Assembly: GCA_963555995.3 (NCBI GenBank)
Contig: OY821641.1
Span: forward strand, 3,168,001 to 3,232,000
Source of the DNA: Vicinamibacteria bacterium
Lineage (GTDB): Bacteria > Acidobacteriota > Vicinamibacteria > Marinacidobacterales > Marinacidobacteraceae
Direction of reading: 5' to 3'
DNA: 64,000 nucleotides
A model generated the notes under the pieces. That model was not told the origin of the DNA. It worked only from the letters and a program-made list of their open reading frames with translations, and made no database searches. Each line of letters begins with the position of its first letter. Positions within the stretch are counted from its first letter, which is position 1. The position numbers were made by a program, and so were the translations under genes. Positions 8,097 to 50,800 of this stretch are shown piece after piece.

Positions 8097-9278
8097 TCAG
8101 CCACCCGGCCCCGGAGCGCCCGGACCTTCGGCGAACAGGCGCAGATAAGCGCGATACGCGAAGACCCGGTTGCGCCGACGGCCCGTAGTTTCCTCCAGGA
8201 TTCCGGCCTCCACCATCCGGGATACCAGGACGTTCGCGTTGGCATAGCTGGTTCCAACCTGTCGTCGAACCCCCGCGACGGTGACCAGCGGTTGCCGGAA
8301 CAGGCTCTCCAGAACCCGGTGTCCGTTCCCGGCAGCGCGCCCCAGTCTCTCCGTGATCCGTGCCCGGTGACGCTCGCGGAGGGTCAGGATGCGGCGGGTC
8401 GTCGCCGCGGCGTCGGCGCTCACCACCGCGACCGCGCGCAGGAAGAAGGCGATCCAGCCCTCCCAGTCGCCCCGGTCGCGAACGCCCTGCAGCCGGTCGT
8501 AGTACTCGGCGCGATGCCGCATGAAGAACCAGGACAGGTAGAGGACCGGCTTCGTCAGGATCCGGTCGCGGCAGAGCAGGAGGGTGATGAGAAGCCGGCC
8601 GATCCGGCCGTTGCCGTCGCGGAACGGGTGGATGGTCTCGAACTGGGCGTGGGCGAGCCCGATGCGGACCAGCGGCGGCGCCTGCGGCGCATCCGCGCGG
8701 AGGAAGGTCTCAAGATCTCCGAGGAGACCGGCGACGTCGGCGGGCGGAGGCGGAACGAAGACGGCCCGCGCGATGTTCGAACCGGGAGCGCCGATCCAGA
8801 CCTGGTTGTCTCGGAGTTGTCCGGGATCGAGAGCCGCGCCGCGGGTGTCCTCGAGCAGGCGACGGTGCAGCCGGCAGATGAGCGCGACCGAGATCGGTTC
8901 CTCCCGCACGGCCGCGATGCCCTCGCGCATGGCCGCCGCGTAGTTGAGGACCTCGCCGGCGTCGCCCGGCCGTTCCGGGGCCAGGACTCTCGCCTCGGCG
9001 GCGAGGACGTCCTCGAGCGAGCTCTCGGTTCCCTCGATCCGGCTGGAAAGCACGGCCTCGTGCTTGATGTAGGTCAGCAGGAACAGATCGGGGTCCGGGA
9101 GGACCGCGATCGAGCCATCAAGCCGGCCGAGCGCCCGGTCGGCTTCGGAGAGCAGGTTCTGGAGGTCCCCGTCGAGTCGAACCGGCGGGCTGGGCGGCAG
9201 CGGACGAGGCAGAAAGGCGCGGTAGCCCTCCGGCTGAAGTCGCCAGGTCCCGGCCCGGTTCCCGGGAGTGGAGTCCAT
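8097..9278 (-). CDS. Fic family protein (class II) with C-terminal HTH
   Basis: Catalytic motif HPFRDGNGRIGR, inhibitory SSRIEGT, C-terminal ...GILEETTGRRRNRVF; start taken at MDSTPGNRAG. Confidence 0.92.
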   Translation of the reverse strand: MDSTPGNRAGTWRLQPEGYRAFLPRPLPPSPPVRLDGDLQNLLSEADRALGRLDGSIAVLPDPDLFLLTYIKHEAVLSSRIEGTESSLEDVLAAEARVLAPERPGDAGEVLNYAAAMREGIAAVREEPISVALICRLHRRLLEDTRGAALDPGQLRDNQVWIGAPGSNIARAVFVPPPPADVAGLLGDLETFLRADAPQAPPLVRIGLAHAQFETIHPFRDGNGRIGRLLITLLLCRDRILTKPVLYLSWFFMRHRAEYYDRLQGVRDRGDWEGWIAFFLRAVAVVSADAAATTRRILTLRERHRARITERLGRAAGNGHRVLESLFRQPLVTVAGVRRQVGTSYANANVLVSRMVEAGILEETTGRRRNRVFAYRAYLRLFAEGPGAPGPGG

Positions 9279-22581: not shown

Positions 22582-22780
22582 GCGGTATCGCCTCGGGCAG
22601 GAATCAACGGACGCTTCAGGGACTCACCCGGGCTACGCCGGAAGGACGGCCAGCGTACCGCAGGCCGGGGGTCCGGTCGCCGGACTCCCGGTGCGCTCCT
22701 CCGCTGCCGCGACCTCGTCCGGCGTCTCGCCGCCCCGAGACCGCCGCCCGGCGACGCGTCCTCCGCGACAACGGCGCCCC

Positions 22781-22945
22781 TCGTGGATCACCCGTGAGAC
22801 ACAACGCCGTTTGTGGATCACTCTCCGCCGAACGTGAGACGCAAGGCCCGTTGTGGATCACCGGTGAGACACAAAACCCTTTGTGGATCACTTTTCGCCG
22901 AACGTGAGACGCAAGGCTCGTTGTGGATCACCGGTGAGACGCAAG
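22781..22945. repeat. Alternating 30/40-bp repeat array A
   Basis: GTGGATCAC at 22783, 22813, 22853, 22883 and 22923, each followed by GTGAGAC(A/G)CAA. Confidence 0.9.
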
Positions 22946-23003: not shown

Positions 23004-24125
23004 TCACCGGTAGCTGGACGGGCTCTCTGCGATCTCGATCAGCTCTCCGAACGCCAGGATCGCGGGGTGGCGACCCCGGCTCGGCGCCAGTTCCCGCAGC
23101 ATCCCGCGATCCCTGAGAACCCGAAGGATGCGCAGGGCCGTGGGTCTCGGGACTCCCGACCTCGCAGCAAGATCCGAGGTCCAAAAAACCGGCTGATCGA
23201 ACATGAAGTCCAGGGACCGCACCGCGTGCTGCGAGCGGGTCGTCTTCGCCACCCAGTCCTTCCTGGCGGCGTAGAGCGCGAGAATCCGTCTCGCTTTCTC
23301 GGTATTGGCGACCGCCTGCTTCTCGAGGGCGGTGAGGAAGAATCGAAGCCACGGGGCCCAATCCCCTCCGCTCTGGGCAGCCAGCAGATTCCGGTAGTAG
23401 TCCTCGCGAAACCGTTCCAGGTACTCGCTCAGGTAGAAGTTCGGCCGTTGCAGCAGGCCCTTCGCCATCAGAAAGAGCGGCACCATCAGGCGCCCCAGCC
23501 GGCCGTTCCCGTCGAGGAACGGATGAATCGCCTCGAACCACACGTGGGCGACCCCGAGCTGGACCAGCGCATCGGGCGTTTCCTCGTGGAGATAGCGCTC
23601 CCAGGCCTCCATGGCGTCAGGGATCTCGGGAACGGGACAGGTGACGAGGGTCGCGGTCTCCTCCTTCGAGCCCGGCGGCCCGATCCAGTTCTGGATGCGG
23701 CGATAGTCACCGGGATCGGCCGTCTGACCCCCAGTTCCCTTCATCAGGACCTCGTGGGCCCGACGGATCACCCGCTGGGAGAGCGGAAGGCTCGCCATCA
23801 ACTCGGTCGCCACCGTGAGTGCGACGCGGTAATTGAGAACTTCCCGAGCGTCCGCCCCGGTCTGCGGGGACTCGTCTCGACCATCACCGTTCGCGCCGAG
23901 CGCCAGGACCTCGCTCAGCGAGGACTGGGTCCCTTCGATGCGGCTGGAGAGCACGGCCTCCTGAACCGACAGCGGCGAGAGCAGGACATCCGGATTCGGG
24001 ACCCCGTGCAGGACACCCTCGTATCCGGCGATGGCGCGCTGAGCGCGGCCGATCAACGGGAGCAGCGTCGGCCAATCGAACGAACGTGGCGGGTAGAAGC
24101 CCGGACGGTAGCGGGGAGGGCTCAT
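23004..24125 (-). CDS. Fic family protein (class II) with C-terminal HTH
   Basis: HPFLDGNGRLGR, SSRIEGT, C-terminal SDLAARSGVPRPTALRILRVL. Confidence 0.92.
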   Translation of the reverse strand: MSPPRYRPGFYPPRSFDWPTLLPLIGRAQRAIAGYEGVLHGVPNPDVLLSPLSVQEAVLSSRIEGTQSSLSEVLALGANGDGRDESPQTGADAREVLNYRVALTVATELMASLPLSQRVIRRAHEVLMKGTGGQTADPGDYRRIQNWIGPPGSKEETATLVTCPVPEIPDAMEAWERYLHEETPDALVQLGVAHVWFEAIHPFLDGNGRLGRLMVPLFLMAKGLLQRPNFYLSEYLERFREDYYRNLLAAQSGGDWAPWLRFFLTALEKQAVANTEKARRILALYAARKDWVAKTTRSQHAVRSLDFMFDQPVFWTSDLAARSGVPRPTALRILRVLRDRGMLRELAPSRGRHPAILAFGELIEIAESPSSYR

Positions 24126-24169: not shown

Positions 24170-24303
24170 TTGTGTCTCACTTTTGGCCAAAAGTGAGACG
24201 CAAGGCCCGTTGTGGATCACCGGTGAGCCACAAAGCCGCTTGTGGATCACTTTTCGCCGAAAGTGAGACGCAAGGCCCGTTGCGGTTCACCGGTGAGCCA
24301 CGA
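24170..24303. repeat. Alternating 30/40-bp repeat array B (fic promoter side)
   Basis: Same units as array A; begins with the near-perfect palindrome TTGTGTCTCACTTTTGGCCAAAAGTGAGACGCAA. Confidence 0.85.
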
Positions 24304-24388: not shown

Positions 24389-24544
24389 CGAGAGGCCGGC
24401 GAGGCGCCCCGCTGACAAGGCGCGTGAGGGAGGAATACCGGGTGTATTCCGACCGAAACGCAACGATGAGCACCTCGTAGAGGCGCGGTTCAGGCGGGAT
24501 GCCTCGCCGCTCGACCGCCGCGAGGGTTTTGCCACCGGCTGCCA
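24389..24544. mobile_element. Degenerate MITE copy (left end missing)
   Basis: Shares ACAAGGCGCGTGAGGGAGGAATACCGGGTGTATTCCGACCGAAACGCAACG with the two full copies. Confidence 0.8.
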
Positions 24545-24729
24545 AGTCTTCGGCCTCATCCATAGAATCCTCTCCGCCCTCAAGGAGGACGCAACCCTCT
24601 GACCTCGGCAGATCCGCTCGGCAAACCCGGCCGCCGCCCGGCGGCCGAACGCGTGGCCACCGAGCAGCGCTTCGACAACGCCCGGAGCCGATCCGGCAGC
24701 CGCAACATCGCCGAGCGGATCTCGGTCTG

Positions 24730-25644
24730 ATGGCCGAATACGACCTTCCTGCCGGTCCGGCCGAACTCTTCGAGGCCGTGCGCGGCGCCCTTGGCGACTA
24801 CCTTGGCGGCCAGCACCACATGCGGCTCGGCGGCGGAACGGCGCTCGCTGCCCGATGGGCGCACCGCCACAGCACGGATGTGGACCTCTTCGTTAACAGC
24901 CTGTGGTGAAACCCACGTGAGCGCCGAGACGGGTGAGGCGCCCGGCTGACAAGGCGCGTGAGGGAGGAATACCGGGTGTATTCCGACCGAAACGCAACGC
25001 AGAGCGCCTCGGAGAGGCGCGGTTCAGCCGGGATGCATCGCCCGTCGAACGCCGCGTGGGTTTTGCCACAGGCTGTTAAACCCGCACCCTACGAGCGCCT
25101 CTTCCAGGAACGGCTGGCGTTCCGCGACCAACTCCAGCGCCATCTGGGAGCTCACGCCGTCGACATCGACTCCGGTATCGCGACAATCCACTTCCTCCAG
25201 GAGGATCGGCTCGGTGAAGTGACCCTCGCCACCAGTCCCCCGCTCACCCGGCTTCCGGCATCTTCCGATACGGTCCGAAACACCGTCGTTCACCTGGAAG
25301 CAACCGCCGAAATCCTTGCCAAGAAACTCCACTACCGCATGTTCCTGCAGGGGCGGCTCGTCCCGCGTGACCTCTACGACCTGGCAATCGCCAGCGACCG
25401 GGACCCCGGCCCGCTCCGCTCCGCGTTGAGCGTTGTCGATACTTCCGACCTCCAGGAAATCCACACGCAACTGCATTCGTTGCCCGAGCGATGGTTGGCG
25501 AATCACCGCCAGCCACTCATCAGGCCGGAGAGCCAACGCGCCGCGTCCAGCGCTGTCCGCATCACGAAAGAGATCATCGCGGACGCCCTCCGGTCCCGGG
25601 CGCCCTACCGACCGTTCCGCGCGGACACTTCCCGGGAACGCTGA
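24730..25644 (+). pseudogene. AbiEii-like nucleotidyltransferase interrupted by a MITE
   Basis: LGGGTALAARWAHRHSTDVDLF, EILAKK, PRDLYD; removing the MITE plus TA restores DLFV-KPAPY (243 aa). Confidence 0.88.
24896..25076. mobile_element. 181-bp MITE
   Basis: Terminal inverted repeats ACAGCCTGTGGTGAAACCCACG / CGTGGGTTTTGCCACAGGCTGT, flanked by TA on both sides. Confidence 0.9.
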
Positions 25645-25655
25645 GCCCGCGACCA

Positions 25656-26291
25656 ATGCTCGATGTCGCGAAGATCCGAACCTTCTACTTCCATCCCCCG
25701 AGCGATGACCCGGAGCACGAGACGACCCCCGAAGAGCTGTGGGCCGCCGCCGAACGCCAGGCGGTCGAGGGATGTCTGCTCCGGGCCGGCGACCCGAAAG
25801 CCGAGGGCCTCGGCGAACATGGTTCCCTCATCGGCGGGCCGGACAAGCCCGCCCGCTGCTTCGGCTTCAACCCCGAGAAACGCCTTCCCCGCAACCCTCT
25901 TCCCCTGAGCTGGTTCGATCACCGTCGCGCCCACGCCTTGCCACCCGACCCACCGGAAGACCCGGACCTTTTCTTTGCCGGGTTGTCCGCCGGCTGTCTC
26001 GCGGGTTACCCGAAGCGCCCCAGCGGGGCCGCGCTCGGCCGCATCTTCCGCGCGGCCGACCTGACTCCGGTCGAGCGCGACCAGCTCTGGCACGTCTTCG
26101 CCTGCATCCATACGAAGAATCTCGTTCGCCTGCTCGCGCGGGGCGGACTCTCGATCTACCAGGTCGCCCGCGCCATTCACCTCTCGGAGGCCCGCTTCGG
26201 CAACGTCGTCGCCTGGATCAACCAGTTCGCCGCGCGACCGGAACTCGACGGGCACGCGACATCCGGCGCCAGGCCGCCTGGCGACAGATAA
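25656..26291 (+). CDS. Hypothetical protein, probable partner of the AbiEii-like gene
   Basis: ATG 11 bp after the AbiEii stop; 211 aa; the stop codon lies at the MITE junction. Confidence 0.6.
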   Translation: MLDVAKIRTFYFHPPSDDPEHETTPEELWAAAERQAVEGCLLRAGDPKAEGLGEHGSLIGGPDKPARCFGFNPEKRLPRNPLPLSWFDHRRAHALPPDPPEDPDLFFAGLSAGCLAGYPKRPSGAALGRIFRAADLTPVERDQLWHVFACIHTKNLVRLLARGGLSIYQVARAIHLSEARFGNVVAWINQFAARPELDGHATSGARPPGDR

Positions 26292-26471
26292 CAGCCTGTG
26301 GTGAAACCCACGTGAGCGCCGAGAGCGGCGAGGCGCCCGGCTGACAAGGCGCGTGAGGGAGGAATACCGGGTGTATTCCGACCGAAACGCAACGCAGAGC
26401 GCCTCGGAGAGGCGCGGTTCAGGCGGGATGCATCGCCGCTCGAACGCCGCGTGGGTTTTGCCACAGGCTGT
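26291..26471. mobile_element. 181-bp MITE, second full copy
   Basis: Near-identical to 24896-25076; flanks are TA and TG. Confidence 0.88.
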
Positions 26472-26530
26472 TGAAGCCGGGCCACCCCCGGCCGGTCGGA
26501 GCCGGAGGTGCGGGATGCGTCGGGGAACCG

Positions 26531-27571
26531 TCAGCGGCGCGGCGCTTCGGCGGTGCGGGCCGGGCGATACGCCTGGTCCGGGTGCGTCGGCCGGTCCGGG
26601 TAGAGGCGCACGAGTTGGCCCGCCTCTGTCATCGGCCCCAGGTACCGGCGCGTCAGGTACTCCGCCGTCATGCCGAACCACGCCGCGAGCTGGCCCGGCT
26701 CCAGCCATCCGCGATGTTCGGTCAACTCCAGGATCAGGTGCTCGACCGTTTCCCGGCGCGCGCGCCGGCCGAGATGTTCGACCTGGTTCCGCAGGTAGAA
26801 CGGCAGGTCGTCGGGAAGCGGCGCCCGGGCGGGCGCGGCGGGGGCCGGATCAGCCGGGGCGGGCGCCGGACCGGGTTCGCCCGGCGGCGGGGCCGGCGCG
26901 GCCGCCGCTCGCGCGGCCGGCCGGGACCGGTTGGGTTCCCGGGTCGGAGACGAGGGCGGCCCCGGCGACTGTCGCGGACCCGGCGCGGAACCGGCCGCCC
27001 GTCGCCCGCGCCGCCGCGGCGGACGCGGCGTCGGGGCCGGAGCGGCGGGTTCCGGCGTCGGGGTCGCGTTATCGAAGTCGGACGCCTCGGCCATGAACCG
27101 GGCCGCCAGCTTCGTCAGTTCGGTCACCCCGGCCTCGACCTCGGCAAGGGCCGCGCCGCCCGCGATCAGCCAGCCGCCGAGACGCACCAGCCGCTCGCCC
27201 AGCGCCCCGAGCCGTCCTTCCGCCGAACTCCAGTTCCGGCCCACCGCGCCGAGCCGCGCTCCAAAGTTCTGCGCCCGCCGGCCGGCGAACGCGGCGAGCC
27301 GCGCGGCGCGCATGAGGCGCACGCTCTGCTTGCCGATCCACCGCACCGCACGCGCGAACCACTGGGCGATCCGCACCATCCAGAGCCAGATCCCCACGCC
27401 GAATTTCCAGAGCCGCGGGCGGGGCTTCACCACGAACCGCCGCAGGCGGTCGAGACCGGGCGGCTCCCCGGACTCCAGCAGTTCGCGGACGGATTCGACC
27501 TCCTCCCTGGTCCCGGTCTCGCCGCCGGGAGACTCCGAGGGCCGCGTTTCCCGCAGGTTCAGGAGGGCCAC
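26531..27571 (-). CDS. Hypothetical protein with Pro-rich linker and C-terminal winged HTH (Fic-like C-terminal type)
   Basis: ILELTEHRGWLEPGQLAAWFGMTAEYLTRRYLGPMTEAGQLVRLYPDRPTHPDQAYR. Confidence 0.72.
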   Translation of the reverse strand: MALLNLRETRPSESPGGETGTREEVESVRELLESGEPPGLDRLRRFVVKPRPRLWKFGVGIWLWMVRIAQWFARAVRWIGKQSVRLMRAARLAAFAGRRAQNFGARLGAVGRNWSSAEGRLGALGERLVRLGGWLIAGGAALAEVEAGVTELTKLAARFMAEASDFDNATPTPEPAAPAPTPRPPRRRGRRAAGSAPGPRQSPGPPSSPTREPNRSRPAARAAAAPAPPPGEPGPAPAPADPAPAAPARAPLPDDLPFYLRNQVEHLGRRARRETVEHLILELTEHRGWLEPGQLAAWFGMTAEYLTRRYLGPMTEAGQLVRLYPDRPTHPDQAYRPARTAEAPRR

Positions 27572-27606: not shown

Positions 27607-27954
27607 AGCTACCGTCACTAATCGCTTCGGTGACGCCGAGCTACCGTCATTGTACGCACCGGTTGAGGCCGAGCTACCGTCACTAACCCGAAAATTCGGC
27701 CCCAGCTACCGTCATTAGCGCCCGAGCTACCGTCACTAAACGGATCGGACGCCTCCGAGCTACCGTCACTAACGCCGTCGGTGACTCCGAGCTACCGTCA
27801 CTAACGCCGCCGCAGACGCCCAGCTACCGTCACTAAACCGAAAATTCGGCCCCAGCTACCGTCATTAGCGCCCGAGCTACCGTCACTAAACGGATCGGAC
27901 GCCTCCAAGCTACCGTCACTAACGCCTTCGATGACGCCGGAGCTACCGTCACTA
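27607..27954. repeat. Array of 12 copies of AGCTACCGTCA(C/T)T(A/G) with variable spacers
   Basis: Cores start at 27607, 27639, 27672, 27704, 27725, 27758, 27790, 27822, 27854, 27875, 27908 and 27941. Confidence 0.95.
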
Positions 27955-27983
27955 TGCGAGCCTCTCGCAGCAACGGGGCCGAT

Positions 27984-28146
27984 GGGAGCGCCGGTCTTCA
28001 GACCGGCACGCGCTGCGCGACAGCGCAGCGCACGGCACAACGCTTCCGCACGTGATGGCGCCCGGCTCTCGGATCATCACCTTGAACACCGGCACGACAT
28101 CCGCAGGCCTCCGGCCCGCGGTGCCGGTCTGAAGACCGGCGCTCCC
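27984..28146. repeat. REPIN-like inverted REP doublet
   Basis: GGGAGCGCCGGTCTTCAGACCGGCA and its reverse complement at the two ends. Confidence 0.9.
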
Positions 28147-28309
28147 AGCCGGCGGCGCAACCTGCGCTAACGGACGTCTCGGCGAGACTGCATTTTCACA
28201 GCAACTGGCCGGCGCTCCCGGCCGGCGGCGCAACTTGCGCTGGTTGACGTTTCGCCGAAACCGCATTCTCACAGCAAACCCGATGTCGTCAAGACGCCGG
28301 CGTTCTTCG

Positions 28310-29487: not shown

Positions 29488-30636
29488 ATGGACGCCATCT
29501 ACCTCGACTACAACGGGTCCGCCCCGCTGGACCCCCGCGTCGCCGAGGTCATGGTCCGCGCCCTCACCGACGGGCTGGGGAACGCCGCCTCCGCCCACCG
29601 CTTCGGGCTCCGGCAGGCGGCGGCGGCCGACGAGGCCCGCGAGCACGTCGCCGCCATGGTCGGAGGCCGCCCCTCGGGGGTCATCTTCACCTCGGGAGCC
29701 ACCGAGGCGAACAACCTCGCGCTGCGCGGAGCCGTCGAAGGACGGCCGCCCGAACGCCCCCGAATCCTCGTCTCGGCGGTGGAGCACGCCTCCGTCTCCC
29801 GGACGGCGGCATGGCTCGGCGAGTCGGGCCAGGCCGAGGTCGGGACCCTTCCGGTGACCCCCGGCGGTTTCGTGGACCCGGACGAGGTCGGCGCGATGAT
29901 AGATTCCGATGTTCTGTTGGTATCCGTCATGGCCGCCAACAGCGAGACAGGCGTTCTCAACCCGGTGGGCGAGATCGCCGAGCGCGTCCACGCCGCCGGC
30001 GCGCTGTTCCACTGCGACGCCACCCAGTTCGCCGGACGGCTACCGTTCGACATGGAGGAGGCCGGAGCCGACCTGGTGTCCGTCAGCAGTCACAAGATCT
30101 GCGGGCCGACCGGCGCGGGCGCGCTGATCGGCGCCCGGGCCGCCCTCAAGCGGCTTCGTCCGGTGCTCCACGGCGGGGGCCACGAGCGCGGGCTCCGTTC
30201 CGGGTCGCTCAACGTCGCCGGCATCGTCGGGTTCGGGGCCGCCGCCCGGATCGCCACCGAGGAACGGACGGCCGAGCGGCGCCAGGTCGCGGGGCTCCGG
30301 GACGAACTCGTCACCCGCCTGCGGGAGCGCCTCCCCGGCGTCCACGAACTCGGGGACACCGGCCGGAGGCTGCCGAACACCGCCTGCCTCCGGTTCGCGG
30401 GGGCCGACGGCCAGGCGGTCGCCACCCGCATGGACCCGGTCGCGGTCTCCCTGGGCAGCGCGTGCCACTCCGGCTCCATCGAGCCGTCCGCGACGCTGGT
30501 GGCGATGGGGATACCCCGGGACGACGCCTTCGAGGCGGTGCGGTTCAGCGTGGGCCGGTTCACGACCACGCAGGAGATCGAGGTCGCGGTCGAGGCGGCG
30601 GTCACCGCCGTCGAGTTCGTCCGGGAGATGATGTAG
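29488..30636 (+). CDS. sspA: Cysteine desulfurase, SspA/DndA-like
   Basis: IYLDYNGSAP, FTSGATEANN, PLP lysine SSHK, catalytic GSAC; first gene of the operon with DUF4007, ATPase and PAPS reductase. Confidence 0.85.
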   Translation: MDAIYLDYNGSAPLDPRVAEVMVRALTDGLGNAASAHRFGLRQAAAADEAREHVAAMVGGRPSGVIFTSGATEANNLALRGAVEGRPPERPRILVSAVEHASVSRTAAWLGESGQAEVGTLPVTPGGFVDPDEVGAMIDSDVLLVSVMAANSETGVLNPVGEIAERVHAAGALFHCDATQFAGRLPFDMEEAGADLVSVSSHKICGPTGAGALIGARAALKRLRPVLHGGGHERGLRSGSLNVAGIVGFGAAARIATEERTAERRQVAGLRDELVTRLRERLPGVHELGDTGRRLPNTACLRFAGADGQAVATRMDPVAVSLGSACHSGSIEPSATLVAMGIPRDDAFEAVRFSVGRFTTTQEIEVAVEAAVTAVEFVREMM

Positions 30637-30646
30637 GGGAGAACCG

Positions 30647-31576
30647 ATGCGACTGACCGACGCCGCGGAGCGCTCCTTCGCCCGCCACGAGACTTTCCAC
30701 CCGCGCTACGGCTGGTTCCGGAAGGCGTACCGGTCAGTGGCCGAGGATCCGCACGTCTTCGACTATGAGGACGCGCCAGTCCGTATCGGGGTCGGAAAGA
30801 ACATGGTCCGCGCGATCCGGTTCTGGGGGCTTGCCGCCGGCCTGATCACCAACACGTCCGAACACCGCCGCCGGAAGCGTCTGAAACCGACGCCCTTCGG
30901 GGAGCAGCTCTTCGGCGAATCAGGGTGGGATCCGTGGATGGAAGACCCCGGAACCCTCTGGCTGATCCACTGGCGGCTCCTGCGAAAGCATTGCCTACTA
31001 CCGGTCTGGTGGCTCGCCTTCAACGAGTTCCACCCCATCGAGTTCACCGACGACACCCTCGAAGACGTGGTCGTCCACCAGATCGAAGGAACATCCGGTT
31101 GGAAGTCCCCGCACCCCTCATCACTGAAGAAGGACGTGAGCGCGCTGCTCCGCACCTACGCGCCACAGGACCGGAAGAAACGCAGCGGCACTGACGATGC
31201 GCTGGACTGCCCGCTTCGCGAACTCGGCCTGATCCGCCGCGCCGCAAACCCCGGCCGGTACCGCTTCATCCTCGGCGAGAAGCCACATCTGCCGTCCGCG
31301 GTCGCTACGGCCGCCGCGCTGGAGTTCGCGGGCTTGACCGGCGGCGCAGGAAACACAATCGCGGTCTCGCGCTTGGTCCACGAACCGGGCTCGCCAGGCA
31401 AGGCATTCAAGCTCAACGAGGCAGAATTGCTCGCGGCCCTCGAACCCACAGTTCAGCGACAAAGCATTATCGGGCTGACCTCCAGTACCGGCGCGCACGT
31501 CCTCTCCTGGTCCGGAGCCCCGGACGATCTCGCGGGCACTGTCCTCGCCGACTACTACGGCTCGGAGGGTCCCTGA
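30647..31576 (+). CDS. sspB: DUF4007 protein, SspB-like
   Basis: FARHETFHPRYGWFRKA, IGVGKNMVRAIRFW, DPWMEDPGTLWLIHW, CPLRELGLI. Confidence 0.9.
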   Translation: MRLTDAAERSFARHETFHPRYGWFRKAYRSVAEDPHVFDYEDAPVRIGVGKNMVRAIRFWGLAAGLITNTSEHRRRKRLKPTPFGEQLFGESGWDPWMEDPGTLWLIHWRLLRKHCLLPVWWLAFNEFHPIEFTDDTLEDVVVHQIEGTSGWKSPHPSSLKKDVSALLRTYAPQDRKKRSGTDDALDCPLRELGLIRRAANPGRYRFILGEKPHLPSAVATAAALEFAGLTGGAGNTIAVSRLVHEPGSPGKAFKLNEAELLAALEPTVQRQSIIGLTSSTGAHVLSWSGAPDDLAGTVLADYYGSEGP

Positions 31577-34500
31577 TGCCTACGCTCGCCGATTCCGTCT
31601 CGGTACGGACCCGGTTCGCCCGCTCGGCGAACCTGGAACGCGACTCGGGCCGGTCGGAACCCTTCGACGGCTACATCGTCACCGGCAGGGCGCTCGACAT
31701 GATCGAGCGGCTGACGAGCGCGGCGCTCGCGGGGAGGGCCGGCGGAGCGTGGTCCGTAACCGGCCCTCACGGTTCGGGCAAGTCCTCTCTTGCCCTTCTC
31801 CTTGATGCCGCGTTCGGCCCCGGCAAGCGCCTCCGAAGTACCGCTCTGGACCTGATCGCCGACGCATCCCCGGCGGCGGCAGAAGCCATTCAGGACGCGC
31901 ACCGACGCCACAGCACACGTCGGAAAGGCTTCCAGCGCGGCCTAGTCACCGCGCAGCGGGAACCGATCGCCCGGACGTTGCTGCAAGGACTCCACGCCGC
32001 GATCCTCGGGACCTGGGGCCGGATCCCTTCCGCGCGCGAGTTCCCGGCTTCCCGACTGTTGAAAGAGGCGCTACGGAACGCGGAGGCACCGAACATTTGG
32101 CAGAACGGAGCATTTGCCTCAACCATCGTCGAAATTGCCAAGTCTCTCGCCGACCGCGCTCCTCTGCTGCTGATCGTGGACGAATTCGGCAAGAGCCTGG
32201 AGGCGATCAGGGACGGTGGCGACGCCGACCCGTACGTCCTGCAGCAACTCGCCGAGACCGGACAGGGCGGAGGACTTCCGATCTTCGTCATCACCCTCCA
32301 ACATCTGTCCTTCGACGACTACTTGATCGGGGCGGAAGCATCGAAGCGCCGCGAATGGGCAAAGGTGCAGGGGCGGTTCGAAGACGTGGCCTATGTGGAG
32401 TCCGCCCGTCAGTCTCGGAGGCTCATTGGATCAGTTTTCGACATCCGGAGCGACGCGCTACGGGTACGCATCCGAAGCACCGCCCAGAGTTACTCGGAAG
32501 CGCTGAGCCGACTTGGGATAGCGAATGGAACCGATACGGAGGTCCTCGCCTCCTGTTATCCCTTGCATCCGCTTGTCGCTTTGGTGCTGCCCGAACTGTG
32601 CAGCCGGTACGGCCAACACGAACGCACTCTTTTCTCCTTCCTCGCTGGGGCGGACCCGGCAAGCGCGGCGTCGTTCCTCGCGGCGGGGGACATCGAGGAG
32701 TCGAACTCGCTGCCGCTGGTCGGCCTGGATTTGGTGTACGACTACTTCGTCGGAGGCGCTGCGGCTTCGAATGGCGCCCTTTCGCATTCGAGTCGCTGGA
32801 CCAAGATCGCCACCCGGTTGCGAGACATCCACGGGCTGTCCCCGGCACAGACCCGTCTCGCCAAGTCCATCGCCCTCGTCAACCTTGTCTCGACCAGCGG
32901 GACGATCCGGGCGTCGCGCGAGATTCTGACCTTGGCAGCGTCGAAGCCGGAGCAGGACCTTCGGGCGCTGGAAGCACGGGGCATCATCACCTACCGCGCG
33001 TTCGCGGACGAGTACCGGATCTGGCAGGGCACGGACACTGACCTTCGCCGTCTCTTGGATGCGGCGTACGAGCGGCTCCATCACCGATCTCTGTTCGACA
33101 TCCTTTCCGAAATGGAGGTGCCTCCCCCGGTGGTTGCGGCACGCCACAGCGCCCAGAATCATGTGCTGCGCGTCTTCAAGCGACGGTACTTCGAGGCAGG
33201 AGAACCAGTCGAGCCGCTTGCCCCCTCTTCGCCATTCGACGGTGAGGTCCTGCTCAACGTCGGCCCCTTGGTTCCGACCTTGCCGGTACCCGGTCCGGGC
33301 GTTAAGCCCACGATCGCGGCAACGCCAAGTAGCACGACAGACTTGGACCGCGCCGCACGCGAAGTGGCAGCGGTCTTGGCAGTACTCAAAGATCCGGTCG
33401 TCGCCGACGATCCGGTAGCTCGCGCGGAACTCGCCGAACGACTCGCCCAAGCCCGTGCAGCCTTCGACCACGCCTTCGGCATCGCGTTTCGGGCGGATGC
33501 TTGCCGCTGGACGATGTGCCTCAAGCGATCGACCGCAAGGGAGCTGCACCCAGGCCGGGGGAGCGCTCCACTGTCGGAGGCCGCCGACCTCGCCTACGAG
33601 TACACCCCGGTGATCTCCAACGAAATGCTCAATCGGACGGAACTCACCTCTCAGGGTGCGAAGGCCCGGCGGATAGTGCTCCAGGCGATGATCGAGCACG
33701 GTTCGGAGCCGGATCTTGGCTTCAAGGGATACGGGCCGGAGGTGGCGATGTATCGGGCGGTCCTGGAGAGGACCGGCCTTCACGGGTTCGCACCGGACGC
33801 GGAAGAGCGAGGCTTCCGCGAACCCTCCGAGAAATCGCTCGGGCGGGCGTGGCATTCCGTTCAGCGGGGGTTCGAGCGAGCCCAGACCCAGCGCATCAAC
33901 CTCCGCAACCTCTATAGCGACCTTCTGTCGCCGCCAATCGGAATGAAGGCCGGGGTTATTCCCGTTTTCCTGACCGTCGCGCTTCTAGTGAGGTGTGACG
34001 ACATCGCGATCTATGAACACGGCACATTCAAGCCACTCTTGACGGCTGACCTGTCGGAACGGATGGTTCGGAACCCAGCCCACTTCGAGATCAAGTGCTT
34101 CGCGAACACCGAGGGGGCGCGGGGGCAGGTCGTCTCCGCGCTCGCAGAGTACCTACACATTCGAGGGAGCTCTCGCGGGTACAGGGTCGCCAACGTAGTC
34201 GCCGTGGTCGGGCATTTGGTCTCGAAGATCCGGCGGCTGGATCACTTCACTCTGAGGACTGGCGATCTCAGCAAGGCGGCGTCGGCAGTACGGGACGTCG
34301 TGGTCGCTGCTGTGGAGCCAGACGAACTGCTGTTCGACTCCCTCCCGACCGCACTCGGCTTTCCTCCCGTCCCGGCGAACGCTCCGAGCTACGAAGCCGC
34401 GATCGGTTACGCGCAGACGGTGACCGAGGCACTTAGGGAACTGAGCGCCCGGCCCGATAGACTGCTTGCGGAACTGCTCCAGCTGTTGCTCGATACCAGC

Positions 34501-35031
34501 GCCGAGACATCCCGGGTAGCGATTTCCCGTCAGGCGGCGGCGCTGGAAGGGCATGTTCTCGACCCCGAATTGAGGGCCTTCGTGCTGACGCTAGCGAGCG
34601 ACGCCTCCGAGACCGACTCGGACTGGATGCGCGCCATTGCGACAGTCGTCGCCAAGAAGGCACCATCTGAGTGGAGTAAAGAGGACATGGTGTGGTTCGA
34701 CCGCGAACTCTCTGCCCGCGTGGCGGCCTTCCACCGGCTCATCGCTCTCCACGCCGACAACCAGACCAGTGGCGCGCCCGACGCGTTGCGCGTGACACTA
34801 ACCCGTGCCGATGGCAGCGAGCACAACCGGTTGGTCGCTATTGACGCGAAGGATCGCCCCGAGGCGGAACGCGCCCTTGACGCCGCCCTTGTCGAGCTAG
34901 CTGAGATCACTGGGTCTCCCCACCATGCCCACAAGGCCCTGCTCGCTCTGCTGGGTGAACGCTTGCTGCCCGATCGGCCCGAGAGTGCAGATCAGTCCGC
35001 ACATCTGCTGCGGAGGGCAGTCAATGTCTGA
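31576..35031 (+). CDS. sspC: Large P-loop ATPase, SspC-like
   Basis: RFARSANLERD, Walker A GPHGSGKS, Walker B IVDEFGK, EWAKVQGRF, CYPLHP, QHERTLFSFL. Confidence 0.88.
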   Translation: MPTLADSVSVRTRFARSANLERDSGRSEPFDGYIVTGRALDMIERLTSAALAGRAGGAWSVTGPHGSGKSSLALLLDAAFGPGKRLRSTALDLIADASPAAAEAIQDAHRRHSTRRKGFQRGLVTAQREPIARTLLQGLHAAILGTWGRIPSAREFPASRLLKEALRNAEAPNIWQNGAFASTIVEIAKSLADRAPLLLIVDEFGKSLEAIRDGGDADPYVLQQLAETGQGGGLPIFVITLQHLSFDDYLIGAEASKRREWAKVQGRFEDVAYVESARQSRRLIGSVFDIRSDALRVRIRSTAQSYSEALSRLGIANGTDTEVLASCYPLHPLVALVLPELCSRYGQHERTLFSFLAGADPASAASFLAAGDIEESNSLPLVGLDLVYDYFVGGAAASNGALSHSSRWTKIATRLRDIHGLSPAQTRLAKSIALVNLVSTSGTIRASREILTLAASKPEQDLRALEARGIITYRAFADEYRIWQGTDTDLRRLLDAAYERLHHRSLFDILSEMEVPPPVVAARHSAQNHVLRVFKRRYFEAGEPVEPLAPSSPFDGEVLLNVGPLVPTLPVPGPGVKPTIAATPSSTTDLDRAAREVAAVLAVLKDPVVADDPVARAELAERLAQARAAFDHAFGIAFRADACRWTMCLKRSTARELHPGRGSAPLSEAADLAYEYTPVISNEMLNRTELTSQGAKARRIVLQAMIEHGSEPDLGFKGYGPEVAMYRAVLERTGLHGFAPDAEERGFREPSEKSLGRAWHSVQRGFERAQTQRINLRNLYSDLLSPPIGMKAGVIPVFLTVALLVRCDDIAIYEHGTFKPLLTADLSERMVRNPAHFEIKCFANTEGARGQVVSALAEYLHIRGSSRGYRVANVVAVVGHLVSKIRRLDHFTLRTGDLSKAASAVRDVVVAAVEPDELLFDSLPTALGFPPVPANAPSYEAAIGYAQTVTEALRELSARPDRLLAELLQLLLDTSAETSRVAISRQAAALEGHVLDPELRAFVLTLASDASETDSDWMRAIATVVAKKAPSEWSKEDMVWFDRELSARVAAFHRLIALHADNQTSGAPDALRVTLTRADGSEHNRLVAIDAKDRPEAERALDAALVELAEITGSPHHAHKALLALLGERLLPDRPESADQSAHLLRRAVNV

Positions 35032-35872
35032 GGACACCCGCCATATCTGTGGCATATCCGGCGGCAAGGATTCCAGCGCACTCGCGGTCTATCTGCGCGG
35101 CAAAGTGCAGGGCATGGAGTACTTCTTCTGTGATACCGGCGCCGAACTCCCGGAGACCTACGAATATCTCACCCGGCTTGAAGTCCTGCTCGGCCAGCCC
35201 ATAGTCCGCTTGAACGCCGAGCGAGGCTTTGACCACTGGTTCGAGGTGTTCCGTGGCGCGCTCCCGTCGCCCCAAATGCGCTGGTGCACCAAGAATATGA
35301 AGATCAAGCCGATCGAGGCGTGGATCGGGGACGAGCCGGCGGTGTCCTACGTGGCGATCCGGGCCGACGAGGCGAACCGGAAGGGCTACATCTCCACGAA
35401 GCCCAACATCCAAAGCCGATTCCCGTTCGTCGAGGACGGCGTCGACCGCGCCGGGGTAATGCGGATTCTCGAGGACGCTGGGATCGGCCTCCCGCACTAC
35501 TACGAGTGGCGTACCCGGTCAGGCTGCTATTTCTGCTTCTATCAGCGCAAGGCGGAGTGGGTCGGCCTCGCGGACCGCCACCCGGACCTCTTCGAACGCG
35601 CCGTCGCGATTGAGCAGAAGGTGCTGCAAGACGCCGGGGTTGACGGCGACGCCGACTTCGGCGATCAGGCCATGCGGGGTCGGAACTACACCTGGTCGGG
35701 CGGCGAAAGCCTTCCCCAGCTCCTTGCCCGGCGGAACGAGATCATCGCCAAGCATCGGGATTCGCTGGCTCGCTCTCGTCGTCCCCAACAGAATGTTCCT
35801 CTCTTGGAGGCACTAGCTGACGCTCTCGACGAAGAAGACGATACCGCGCCGTGTGCGGTGTGCGCTCTATAG
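35024..35872 (+). CDS. sspD: PAPS-reductase-family protein, SspD-like
   Basis: PP-loop SGGKDS, DTGAELPETY, RWCT, RSGCYFCFYQ, C-terminal CAVC. Confidence 0.9.
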   Translation: MSEDTRHICGISGGKDSSALAVYLRGKVQGMEYFFCDTGAELPETYEYLTRLEVLLGQPIVRLNAERGFDHWFEVFRGALPSPQMRWCTKNMKIKPIEAWIGDEPAVSYVAIRADEANRKGYISTKPNIQSRFPFVEDGVDRAGVMRILEDAGIGLPHYYEWRTRSGCYFCFYQRKAEWVGLADRHPDLFERAVAIEQKVLQDAGVDGDADFGDQAMRGRNYTWSGGESLPQLLARRNEIIAKHRDSLARSRRPQQNVPLLEALADALDEEDDTAPCAVCAL

Positions 35873-35963
35873 CAAGAAATGTCCGTTCACCTCTTGGTTT
35901 ACTCGTCACTCCGTGCGTTCGGGACCCTTAACCTGCTCAGGAAATCCTTTAAAGGAGATCGCT

Positions 35964-37043
35964 TTGCGCATATCGACCAGTGAGTGGAGTGTTCGCATGC
36001 TGACGGACTTCCAGCACCGGATGAACACCGATGCCGAGTACCAGCGAGGCAAGGTCTGGTCCGAACCACAGCGGGTGCTCCTCATTGACTCCATTCTTCG
36101 TGGCTTCGCTATCCCAACTATCTTCCTTCGGAAACATGACGGTGGCGACGAATACCTGTTCGACGTCGTTGACGGAAAACAACGTCTCACGGCGATATGG
36201 CGCTTTCTCTCAAACGACATCCGTCTCCTACGCAATGCTGAAGAATACCCCGGCCTTGGCAATCTGGGTGGGCAATGCTGGTCCGATCTCTCCAGAAAGG
36301 CGCAGGATCACCTGCAATTCGCGAATATAACTGTCTCAAAAATCGAAAATGCCAGCGACGATCAGATACGGGAGCTCTTTCTTCGCCTACAAAAGGGGGA
36401 ACCACTGAACGCCGCGGAGAAACGTAATGCCATGTCGGGTCCAGTGCGCGATTTCGTCGCAAAGAAGCTCGCCAAGCACCCTCTCTGGCCAACGACCGGG
36501 ATTAGTCCGAAGCGATTCGGAACAGATGAGCATTCCGCCATATTGCTAGCGTTGATGTACCACCGAGGGCCAACTGCCATTAAGGGCGCCGATCTCCAAA
36601 AGCTCTACGAAGACGACGACTTCGATCCCCGAGGTACAGCGGCACTCCAGTCCATAGAACTTCTCGATGATCTCTACGCTGTTTCTAGGAAGGATCCGCG
36701 AACTATTCGGACTCGGTGGGGTCTCGTCGATCTCTCACTTGTTCTTATGCGTGCTCGCAAGGACGGTATAAGGATCGACGCGAGCCAAGTCATGAATTTC
36801 TATAAGGAGTTCGAGGAAGAGCGAAAAAAGGCGAGTGTCGCCTGGACAGATTTTCAAACTCGCATGACTGAAATGACTATAGGAGAGGACACGCCAAGCG
36901 ATGCGTGGGGTCAACACAACATTCCAGAAGAGATCCTTAACTATCACCGGGCTTTCGCACGCGAGGGTGGTAGCGCCCAGAACATCGACTTCCGATACAA
37001 AATCATGTACAAGAAGTTTCTGGATCATCTTGGACGTCCATAG
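35964..37043 (+). CDS. DUF262 (ParB-like/GmrSD N-terminal) protein without an evident HNH domain
   Basis: TTG start after AAGGAG; YQRGKVW, LIDSILRGFAIP, VVDGKQRL, FLRLQKGEPLNAAE. Confidence 0.85.
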   Translation: MRISTSEWSVRMLTDFQHRMNTDAEYQRGKVWSEPQRVLLIDSILRGFAIPTIFLRKHDGGDEYLFDVVDGKQRLTAIWRFLSNDIRLLRNAEEYPGLGNLGGQCWSDLSRKAQDHLQFANITVSKIENASDDQIRELFLRLQKGEPLNAAEKRNAMSGPVRDFVAKKLAKHPLWPTTGISPKRFGTDEHSAILLALMYHRGPTAIKGADLQKLYEDDDFDPRGTAALQSIELLDDLYAVSRKDPRTIRTRWGLVDLSLVLMRARKDGIRIDASQVMNFYKEFEEERKKASVAWTDFQTRMTEMTIGEDTPSDAWGQHNIPEEILNYHRAFAREGGSAQNIDFRYKIMYKKFLDHLGRP

Positions 37044-47849: not shown

Positions 47850-50800
47850 TTGGCGCCTCGTTGCCGCTCTGGGCTGTTGTTGGTCGCAGTCGCAGCGTCG
47901 CTGAGTGGCTTCGCCGCGACAGACGCGGCTGCTCAGCAGTTGGTCCTGTCGCCCACGAGCCTCCAGGTGGACGAGGGCGGCACCGGGAGCTTCACCGTGA
48001 CGCTGAGCGCGCTCCCGACCGATACGGTGACCGTCGCCATCACCGGTTTCAGCGGTACGGACCTGACGTTGGACACCACGAGCCTTTCGTTCACGACCTT
48101 GAACTGGGACGACGCGCAGACGGTCACGGTGACGGCCGCCCAGGATGACGACGCGGCCCTCGACCACAACACCCTGACACTCACCGCGTCGGGCGGCGGC
48201 TTTGACACCGCGACCCAGATCGGCGTAAGGATCAACGACGATGATGACGCGACGCTGGTCCTGTCGCCCGGCTTCGACGTGGACGAGGGCGACACCGGGA
48301 GCTTCACCGTGACGCTGAGCGCGCTGCCGACCGATACGGTGACCGTCTCCATCACCGGTTTCAGCGGTACGGACCTGACGTTGGACGAAACGAGCCTTAC
48401 CTTCACGACCTCGAACTGGGACGACGCGCAGACGGTCACGGTGACGGCCGCCCAGGATGACGACGCGGCCCTCGACATCGTCATCCTGACGCTCAGTGCG
48501 TCGGGCGGCGGCTTTGACACCGCGAACCAGATCGGCGTGCGGATCCTCGACGATGATCAGGCGACGCTGGTCCTGTCATCCGCAAGCTTCCGCGTGGACG
48601 AGGGTGGCACCGGGAGCTTCACCGTGAAGCTGAGCGCGGAGCCGACCGGGACCGTGACCGTCACCATCACCGGTTTCAGCGGCACGGACCTGACGTTGGA
48701 CAACACGAGCCTTTCGTTCACGACCTCGAACTGGAACGACGCGCAGACGGTCACGGTGACGGCGGCCCACGATGACGACGCCGTCAACGATTTCATCCCC
48801 CTGACGCTCAGTGCGTCGGGCGGCGGCTTTGACACCGCGAACCAGACCGGCGTGCGGATCCTCGACGATGAGGAGGCGAGGCTGGTCCTGGCGCCTTTGA
48901 GCTTCCGCGTGGCCGAGGGCGGCGCCGGGAGCTTCACCGTGAAGCTGAGCGCGGAGCCGACCGGGACCGTGACCGTCACCATCACCGGTTTCAGCGGTAC
49001 GGACCTGACGTTGGACAAAACGAGCCTTACCTTCACGACCTCGAACTGGAACGACGCGCAGGCGGTCACGGTGACGGCGGCCCAGGATGACAACGCCGTC
49101 AACGAATTCATCGCCCTGAAGCTCACTCCGTCGGGCGGCGGCTTTACCCTCTCCAACCGGAGAGGCGTGCGGGTCCTCGACGATGAGGAGGCGACGCTGG
49201 TCCTGTCATCCACGAGCTTCGGCGTGGACGAGGGCGGCGCCGGGAGCTTCACCGTGACGCTGGGCGCGCAGCCGACCGGGACCGGGACCGTGACCGTCAC
49301 CATCACCGGTTTCAGCGGTACGGACCTGACGTTGGACAAAACGAGCCTTACCTTCACGACCGCGAACTGGAACAACGCGCAGACGGTCACGGTGACGGCG
49401 GCCCAGGATGACGACGCGGTCCTCGACAACGTCACCCTGACGCTCACTCCGTCGGGCGGCGGCTTTGACACCTCGAACGAGATCGACGTGCGGATCCTCG
49501 ACGACGACGCACTCCCACCACCACCGACCAACGGTCCGCCTCGGGTCTCGGCCTCCTGCGACCCGTGCAAAGTGCGGCCCGGCGGGAGGACGGAATTGAC
49601 GGCGAGGGCATCGGACCCGGACGGCGATCCGCTCACGTACGTTTGGCGTGCGCCGGCCGGCCGCTTCGAGGGGGCGACCGACGCGGCGACGGCGCGCTGG
49701 GCGGCGCCGGAGGCGGCCGGCCGATTCACGATCCGGGTGCGGGTCTCCGATGGGGACGGCGGCTCTGCTTCAGCCACGGTGACGATCGAGGTTGTGAACG
49801 AGCCGCCGGCGTTCGATTCATCCGAGTATGCCTTCAACCTGCGGGAGAACGTGGACGGTAGCCGGCTGCCGGTGGTTGTCGGCTCGGTGGTGTCGGAGGA
49901 CCCGGACGGCGACGAACTCGGCTACGAACTGGCGTCCGGGGATGCGTCGCGCTTCGCGGTCGGGGAGCGGGACGGCGTGCTGCGCTACGGAGGTCCCGGC
50001 GAGGACTTCGAGTCGGAGCCAACCCGGTACGAATTGGTCTTGCGCGTCAGCGACCCGTACGGCGCGGCGGCGACTGCCCGCGTGGTGGTGACGGTCGTCG
50101 ACGTGAACGAGCCGCCGGAGGCGGTCGGGGTGATCCCGAACCAGGCGCTCGACGAGGGGGGCGATATGAAGACGGTGGAGTTGGCGCCGTTCTTCGCCGA
50201 CCAGGACGGGGACGCGCTGGCATACCGCGCATCGTCGTCGGACCCGTCGGTCGTGGCGGCAACTGCGGCGGGCGCGGTGCTGACGCTGGCGCCGCTCCAG
50301 TACGGGGATGCGACGGTGACAGTAACGGCGGAGGACGGGGAGGGCCTGGCAACGGCGCAGACGTTCGTGGTGGGGGTGAGCGACCGCCTGGTGCGCGATG
50401 TGGTGCGGAACACGCTGGCGGCGATGACCCGATCGCAGTTGGCGAGCGCACGGGGGGCGCTGGGCCGGCGGGTGAGGGCGGGACGGACGGAGGCGTCGCG
50501 GCTGTCGGTCCAGGGGCGTCGAGTGCCGCTGGACCAGGGGGCGGTGCGCGCGGAGGCGGCCCGGGTGCTGTCGGGTTTGCTGTCGTCATGGACGACCCCG
50601 CATGGAGGCTTGGGCAACGGGCCGGCGTTGGGGTCGGCGGCGACGAGCCCGAGGCGCTCGGCGACCATCGAGCCGGGGGGCCGCATGGCGACGCTTCCGG
50701 TAGCCTCGGGAGCTTCGCTGGCGGCGCACCCACTGCGCGCATCCGAGTTCCTCCTGTCATTGGGCGGCGGCCAGGATGCCGAAGAAGGCCACGGACCAGG

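Follow-up and report, generated by a model that had tools for sequence, protein, structure and literature searches.

In the 64-kb window, by which we mean the whole stretch of DNA that was analysed, an array of short direct repeats lies immediately upstream of a 346-amino-acid gene (Table 1). A search of the whole window for AGCTACCGTCACTA, with up to two mismatches allowed, returned 12 matches, all on the forward strand (nine exact, two with one mismatch and one with two), starting at 27607, 27639, 27672, 27704, 27725, 27758, 27790, 27822, 27854, 27875, 27908 and 27941. The chance expectation is 0.08 matches per window, and 12 matches were reached in none of 100 shuffles. On the strand of the adjacent gene this core, which we call type A, reads TAGTGACGGTAGCT and is non-palindromic. 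The spacings given in an earlier note on this DNA (32, 33, 32, 21, 33, 32, 32, 32, 21, 33 and 33) were reproduced exactly, and the best-fit period of 10.75 bp has a vector strength of 0.97. The placement of the array 36 bp upstream of the gene was likewise confirmed, the first core being 36 bases from the GTG at 27571 with 35 bases between them, and the re-duplication at a 150-bp offset is present and represents an in-register expansion of the array. The spacers have the lengths reported, 7 or 18-19 nt, but they are diverged copies of one ancestral unit rather than independent sequences. The array was correctly described as non-coding, and a coding repeat is ruled out because every one of the six frames has stops across it. 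An Rfam search of the window matched no family, folding of the array on the gene-sense strand was no better than that of shuffles (z -0.58), and no long inverted repeat was listed inside the array. The locus is present in four contig sets of one study, in which no single piece covers the whole array. A REP-like element (27983-28277) lies directly past the array; its inverted arms are perfect over 27 bp, it includes a tandem pair of 73 bp, and its very high contig depth marks a high-copy repeat. Only one sigma-70-like site was found, at 28292-28265, upstream of the array.

Table 1. Positions in the window of the array, the adjacent gene and the regions of its predicted protein
Feature	Position	Strand	Remarks
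Phased array, 12 copies of a 14-bp core	27607..27954	+	Spacings 21-33 bp; best period 10.75 bp
Internal duplication at 150-bp offset	27654..27939	+	27654-27789 versus 27804-27939, 91% identical
346-aa gene; the genome has six such paralogues	26531..27571	-	GTG start
Residues 52-167: two long predicted helices, cationic, Trp-rich, amphipathic	27071..27418	-	No family match
Residues 168-250: Pro/Ala-rich linker, poorly conserved, predicted disordered	26822..27070	-	
Residues 251-340: winged helix-turn-helix (wHTH)	26552..26821	-	Related to Pfam Fic-like_C (PF21247) and the 4RGL C-terminal domain
Residues 301-311 (MTAEYLTRRYL): turn and predicted recognition helix	26639..26671	-	Differs between protein types

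Homologues of the predicted protein start at the same residue. Its match to PF21247 is sub-threshold (19.7 bits against a curated cut-off of 27, E 8e-4), and the family profile matched the C-terminal domain of the Fic protein 4RGL with an E value of 2e-4. AlphaFold2, run on a 32-row alignment, placed helices at residues 52-115 and 121-167, followed by a linker predicted to be disordered and by a confidently folded C-terminal domain; modelled alone, the wHTH domain reached a pLDDT of 90, with four helices and a two-strand wing. In a Foldseek search with this domain the top rows were wHTH proteins, 4RGL being first (E 0.011) and none reaching E <= 0.001, and the matches of the full-length model were confined to the wHTH. 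Residues 37-165 (129 residues) contain 23 R/K, 8 D/E and 7 W, and the N-terminal helices show a hydrophobic moment of up to 0.72, a maximal 19-residue hydropathy of 1.23 and neither a transmembrane segment nor a conserved hydrophobic hairpin. This agrees with the amphipathic character that had been suggested for the N-terminus, where the model places two long cationic helices. An ESM Atlas search with the N-terminal region gave no usable match, NCBIfam and PADLOC returned nothing meaningful for the gene, and no ParB/Noc CTP-binding domain was recognised in Pfam or NCBIfam.

The gene lies in a defence-rich variable region, with SoFic, an AbiEii-like gene, Uma2 and sspABCD around it, and no partition motor, Rep initiator or integrase was recognised among its flanking genes. 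Family genes at different loci have different neighbours. A SoFic-like gene with a C-terminal HTH (23004-24125) is flanked by related arrays of its own (22776-22944 and 24170-24301), made of TTGTGGATCAC at alternating 30/40 bp, which possibly follow the same self-addressing principle with another wHTH; a second SoFic-like gene occupies 8097-9278. The AbiEii-like nucleotidyltransferase gene (24499-25644) is split in two by a REP-like element near 24910-24960, which is found again at 26290-26472. The sspABCD phosphorothioation genes, followed by a GmrSD_N/DUF262 gene, extend over 29488-37043, and five 315-bp in-frame repeats (47941-49504) lie within a large surface-protein-like gene.

Relatives of the gene and their arrays

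The genome of the window is designated G000 here, and the letters A-N for array and core types are labels of the present analysis. By tblastn, G000 holds six paralogues, all six of which are flanked by a phased array, with the A core at two genes and B, D, E and F at one each. The type A core family comprises six arrays of 10-14 units each. Fifteen core patterns were scanned over the chromosome; arrays were found for A, B, D, E and F, together with two short degenerate J arrays, and the nine remaining patterns, for which G000 has no gene, gave none. Further non-coding arrays, mostly with 32- and 21-bp periods, came from an unbiased 11-mer scan that looked for recurrence at 15-80 bp. All of the G000 arrays are intergenic according to our own gene calls, made with a simple codon model, and 14 of the 14 arrays with at least eight units fit a period of 10.6-10.84 bp. 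The family genes sit on chromosome-size contigs, and for types E, F and some H the array is downstream of the gene.

Other repeats were also observed in this genome. Just past a Schlafen/AlbA-HATPase gene with a wHTH-like C-terminal tail there are 21/70-bp repeats of TCGGGCCAATT (L124, G000:C1:41940-42063), while 11 copies of a different core, AGACCGTAGAA, follow a DUF6036 nucleotidyltransferase gene at 31-33 bp (L123, G000:C1:114452-114790), with no gene of the present wHTH family nearby. A CRISPR-like array of 67 units with a 61-bp period (G000:C1:1462147-1466199) is separate from the phased arrays, and a REP-like unit forms an 11-copy 80-bp tandem at G000:C1:751834-752684.

Searches for the gene gave 62 matches, in 15 of the 16 genomes of the genus; the loci examined cover 56 of them and yielded 55 domain hits, six rows in fragmented assemblies being left out. 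Whether homologues carry arrays of their own had been proposed in the earlier note as a check, and the answer was positive. An array flanks 49 of the 55 hits, which come from 15 genomes of the genus; a consensus was extracted for 47 of these arrays, the other two being those at L032 and L043. In two other genera phased arrays occur within ~1.5 kb of seven of the eight genes, two of the seven being weak (four copies). An E-type gene outside the genus carries the E core. The six hits without an array are one whole gene (L028, also listed as L203), two at contig ends, a broken gene, a fragment and the second member of a tandem gene pair. No array was found at L189 either, which is also a whole gene; L203 and L189 share a Gly-Ala-Ala-Asn-Leu helix, which may mark a loss of specificity.

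The cores have a common outline, T-A-T-[TC]-G-[AC]...A-G-[CT]-T. Within the 42 arrays of at least five units, conservation was 0.96-0.99 at core positions 5-12 and 0.58-0.77 in the spacers, and 611 of 638 spacings fell at 20-22, 31-33, 42-44, 53-54 or 63-66 bp. Because the detection of homologue arrays favoured phased spacings, the argument for phasing rests on the 11-mer scan, the spacing tally and the period fits.

The domain profile matched 17 of 23 genomes in the family of the window and 3 of 97 outside it, and it found no match in the four genomes searched from two genera within that family; this patchy distribution suggests that the module is accessory. Relatives are encoded by Vicinamibacteria and Candidatus Marinacidobacterium MAGs, which we take to be sponge-associated. 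Two JGI metagenome scans revealed no relative, viral contigs gave 0 matches and phage records none, and plasmids gave only two weak protein matches.

At E <= 0.001 the domain profile collected 2,685 representatives. Among the 148 examined, 27 had the N-terminal motif of the family, 41 were too short to judge and 80 were classed as other, some of these being family members missed by the motif; in 23 of the 80, a linker with a 7- or 14-residue period stands just before the domain. Schlafen/AlbA-HATPase or Fic-type domains occupy the slot of the amphipathic region in the fused relatives. In three fused HATPase-type genes for which DNA was at hand, the linker corresponds to 14-bp cores of similar outline at 21-23 bp, and two of the three ORFs run through the core in two different frames, from which it follows that it is kept as DNA. 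The phased cores within these ORFs also indicate that the pairing of the wHTH with phased repeats predates the stand-alone form. In addition, since phasing is found in fused relatives that lack the amphipathic region, phasing alone is no pointer to the membrane.

Core, protein type and orphan arrays

Across genomes, one protein type corresponds to one core, and 23 distinct cores were found among 43 genes. These 43 rows form the covariation set, which leaves out L069 (a broken gene), the second gene of L061, three unaligned G000 genes and five genes for which no core had been extracted. The partial correlation of core with helix given backbone was 0.32, and that of core with backbone given helix was 0.02. 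However, 32 of 400 random six-column sets matched or beat the value of 0.32 (p about 0.08), and among single columns R272, in the N-terminal arm, came first, above R308, so that the recognition helix was not singled out column-wise and the test is only suggestive. Some covariation is also expected from shared descent alone, because a gene and its adjacent array are linked. At helix position 2, His accompanies a core with GC in 17 of 19 rows and other residues accompany GA/CA in 24 of 24, a rule behind which there are two changes on the tree. L030 (G clade, 91/91) differs from its nearest relative, L063, at seven of nine turn/helix positions and at 10 of 80 others, and its core has shifted from TATCGCCCCAGGCT to TATCGACCCCAGCT in step with the helix; the contrast between helix and remainder has a p value of 8e-5 for a case that was chosen after looking.

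In a matrix of seven cores by six near-complete genomes, no array was found in 25 of the 26 cells where the gene is absent; part of the positive outcome in the 16 gene-present cells follows from how the matrix was built. Core M was kept out of the matrix, its chosen pattern having missed its own array in G004, and core K was scanned genome-wide in G000 only. Arrays for which no intact matching gene was found were K in G013, J in G009, G003 and G006, A in the fragmented G007 and G015, and an M-like array in G001, where a truncated M gene is present. L069 is a broken gene with arrays of other types beside it. Orphan arrays of types A, B and D occur in G000, those of type I in all three carriers, of H in G008 and G014, of G in G014 and of J in G013. 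Such orphans supply evidence for the pairing that does not depend on gene-array linkage. The earlier note had considered that the core might be scattered independently of the gene. One half of this was indeed seen, since the genome contains five more type A arrays, but the other half was not, the arrays being found mostly in genomes with the matching gene. From these comparisons it is quite probable that each protein type binds its own core, with one domain per direct repeat.

The G000 orphans show 0.046 mismatches per core base versus 0.187 per spacer base, and between the six type A arrays the values are 0.08 for the core and 0.42 for the spacer. At the site after an S9 peptidase gene, compared in 13 genomes, there were A arrays in three, an H array in one, no array in five, other inserted DNA in two, and one relic H unit and a J array in the remaining two; other orthologous sites likewise carry differing types by genome. 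In G013 the region corresponding to the window contains K and J arrays of 68 units, and no family gene is present in the 10 kb examined there. Short degenerate arrays also occur where the gene is absent, and arrays often adjoin REP-like elements. No gene relics were found beside the G000 orphans, tblastn returning the six genes alone; relics beside arrays are present in other genomes. A polarity along the replichores was rejected, four of the six type A arrays following the leading strand; the GC skew switches near 1.62 and 3.52 Mb, and an extreme skew (-0.19) over 100 kb (G000:C1:3300000-3400000) distorts the cumulative curve. Taken together, the orphans resemble arrays that arrived at tolerant hotspots and persist as long as the protein is there; they do not resemble promoters.

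Possible functions of the arrays

The explanation that we favour, with a probability of roughly 45%, is that the array is a multi-copy dock for the adjacent wHTH protein, whose predicted amphipathic N-terminal helices would bring the DNA to the inner membrane. Each protein type would bind its matching core, one wHTH per direct repeat, and the phasing would set 10-60 bound copies on one face of the DNA. The helices, individually weak, could then gain membrane affinity through avidity, by analogy with Noc, whose weak N-terminal amphipathic helix needs assembly on DNA for membrane binding (PMC4331003). The module would be accessory and turn over fast: duplication together with changes in the recognition helix would create new helix-core pairs, arrays would be copied into tolerant intergenic hotspots, and binding would keep the cores under selection. 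The phased platform for the adjacent wHTH protein put forward in the earlier note thus receives comparative support, from the arrays that homologues carry and from type-specific cores that suggest binding, but not under the labels of iteron or centromere.

A generic tether, however, leaves up to seven orthogonal types per genome and the many broken copies unexplained. These features are explained better by the main rival, which the patchy presence also fits and in which the protein would be a toxin held on DNA: bound to the cores it would be harmless, its free N-terminal helices would harm the membrane, and the arrays would act as a DNA antitoxin. If array DNA were lost or degraded, through island loss or a phage attacking the chromosome, the protein would be freed, leading to addiction or abortive infection, and the orphans would be extra sinks. 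The location of orphans at arbitrary tolerant sites and their size, which reaches 39-68 units, fit this explanation, as do the presence of Schlafen/AlbA-HATPase or Fic-type domains in the same slot of fused relatives and the position of the gene between SoFic, the AbiEii-like gene and sspABCD. A precedent for DNA-switched activity exists in CbFic2, whose activity is switched by DNA binding of its C-terminal HTH (PMC10628234). Nevertheless, we consider this rival unlikely. The protein has no conserved hydrophobic hairpin or transmembrane segment and no PADLOC match, and amphipathic helices clustered on DNA should have their membrane binding raised, not lowered. Moreover, orphans were not significantly enriched beside defence or mobile genes (9/21 versus 6/20 random control gaps, p 0.52) or beside R-M genes (5/21 versus 1/20, p 0.18), in a comparison where Pfam thresholds differed (1e-5 versus 1e-8) and genes were classified by eye. 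It is distinctly unlikely that the protein is a transcription regulator which represses its own gene and neighbours from arrays serving as operators or roadblocks, with N-terminal helices that oligomerise. Most gene-linked arrays are indeed found immediately upstream of the gene and with constant orientation, the array in the window being 35 bases ahead of the start; the sole sigma-70-like site found is upstream of the array, and the fold resembles MarR/ArsR-type wHTH. Yet the E, F and some H arrays are downstream of the gene, one orthologous site holds A, H or J arrays or none depending on the species, and orphans favour convergent gaps (10/21 versus 173/890, p 0.003), with only 3 of 21 in divergent ones.

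A neutral minisatellite, riding with the gene and spreading by recombination at REP-rich hotspots with no protein bound, would account for the derivation of all types from a similar 32-bp unit, the in-register duplication, the adjoining REP-like elements and the persistence of some arrays without the gene. We regard it as improbable, given that the core is four times more conserved than the spacer, orphans included, that integer-turn spacing is kept across 21, 32, 53 and 64 bp, and that a like core is maintained inside fused genes in different reading frames. The earlier note inferred an iteron- or centromere-like binding platform. In such a reading the array would belong to an integrated mobile element, and the protein would act as its partition adaptor or as its initiator. 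In favour are the position of the gene in a variable island and the phased direct repeats beside a wHTH gene, a layout also known from tubC/TubR, parC/ParR and iteron/Rep. This assignment now appears very improbable: the arrays are chromosomal, multi-copy and often far from family genes, dozens of orphans lie between housekeeping genes, no partition NTPase, Rep or integrase was recognised in the flanking genes, the family is patchy, and the searches of viral contigs, phage records and plasmids yielded nothing beyond the two weak protein matches on plasmids. The other suggestion of the note was a transcribed repeat-spacer RNA array. Such an array, whether CRISPR-like, TIGR-like or a type III antitoxin, is the least credible explanation of all and is not supported. 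A constant core with variable spacers upstream of a same-strand gene does recall such arrays, but the window has no Rfam match, the array folds like its shuffles, the spacers repeat one another, exactly so in some arrays, orientation to the flanking genes varies, and the spacing follows the DNA helix.

Comparison with known systems

Helically phased direct repeats beside the gene of a DNA-binding, often winged-helix, protein are characteristic of tubC/TubR, parC/ParR and plasmid iteron/Rep systems. Unlike tubZRC/parMRC and iterons, the present arrays have no recognised motor NTPase or initiator, are chromosomal with many orphans, and have two to three turns between cores. REP/BIME elements are intergenic and multi-copy and favour gene 3' ends, and they are palindromic hairpins tied to RAYT transposases. 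The arrays are likewise intergenic and multi-copy with a preference for gene 3' ends, and REPs often adjoin them; unlike REPs, they have unstructured cores without a palindrome, and it is to wHTH paralogues that these are tied. Type III toxin-antitoxin and CRISPR loci also have a repeat array upstream of a gene. The former differ in that no RNA structure signal, nuclease partner, Rfam or PADLOC match was seen here, and CRISPR differs in that our spacers recur within and between arrays, with no Cas partner and no phage match; downstream and inverted arrays, moreover, set the present system apart from both. The wHTH appears homologous to the C-terminal wHTH of Fic and Schlafen/AlbA-HATPase proteins (Dde_2494, PDB 4RGL; DIP2311, PDB 3LMM; PF21247), whose close fused relatives carry 21-bp phased cores of the same outline. 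Unlike these fusions, the present gene stands alone, an amphipathic helical region replaces the enzyme, and the repeats are outside the ORF, mostly of 32-bp period and chromosome-wide. A further parallel is Noc/NBS of Bacillus subtilis, a sequence-specific DNA-binding protein with an N-terminal amphipathic region and sites round the chromosome, whose membrane binding depends on assembly on DNA (PMC4331003). Noc is reported to be a ParB-like, CTP-binding protein that spreads out from single sites of 16 bp. In contrast to Noc, our protein has a Fic-like_C wHTH and no ParB domain, its model consists of helices, linker and wHTH, and its non-palindromic cores form tandem direct arrays instead of single palindromic sites, with up to seven orthogonal paralogues per genome and a patchy presence. 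In all, Noc, partition cassettes, iteron replicons, CRISPR, type III toxin-antitoxin and REP were each rejected as an identity for the system, because the defining features tested failed.

A search of the open-access literature at abstract level found no description of this protein-array system. Within that scope, it is a real, undescribed protein-array system with putative binding, and its best reading is an accessory, fast-turnover module that would dock DNA to the membrane. The working principle, a protein on iterated sites with avidity for the membrane, has precedents. A broader proposal, which we offer tentatively and consider somewhat doubtful, is that the Fic-like_C wHTH is a general self-addressing module whose landing sites are carried by the gene, in the ORF for Schlafen/HATPase and Fic fusions and outside it here. 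In these Acidobacteria it would have diversified into over 15 orthogonal pairs of protein and satellite. Their arrays would spread through the chromosome and keep a membrane-active protein on DNA, serving as a programmable anchor between DNA and membrane or else as the first chromosomal DNA-repeat antitoxin and integrity sensor of a toxin. These two leading functions, membrane anchor and DNA-held toxin, are separable by simple E. coli experiments. In this family nature supplies a library of matched proteins and DNA sequences that could allow a wHTH recognition code to be read directly, and the matched pairs could yield orthogonal parts for DNA labelling or tethering. It also offers a DNA-level reason for the 7-residue low-complexity linkers that precede the wHTH in many Fic- and Schlafen-type proteins, and a bacterial counterpart of satellite DNA that evolves together with the protein binding it.
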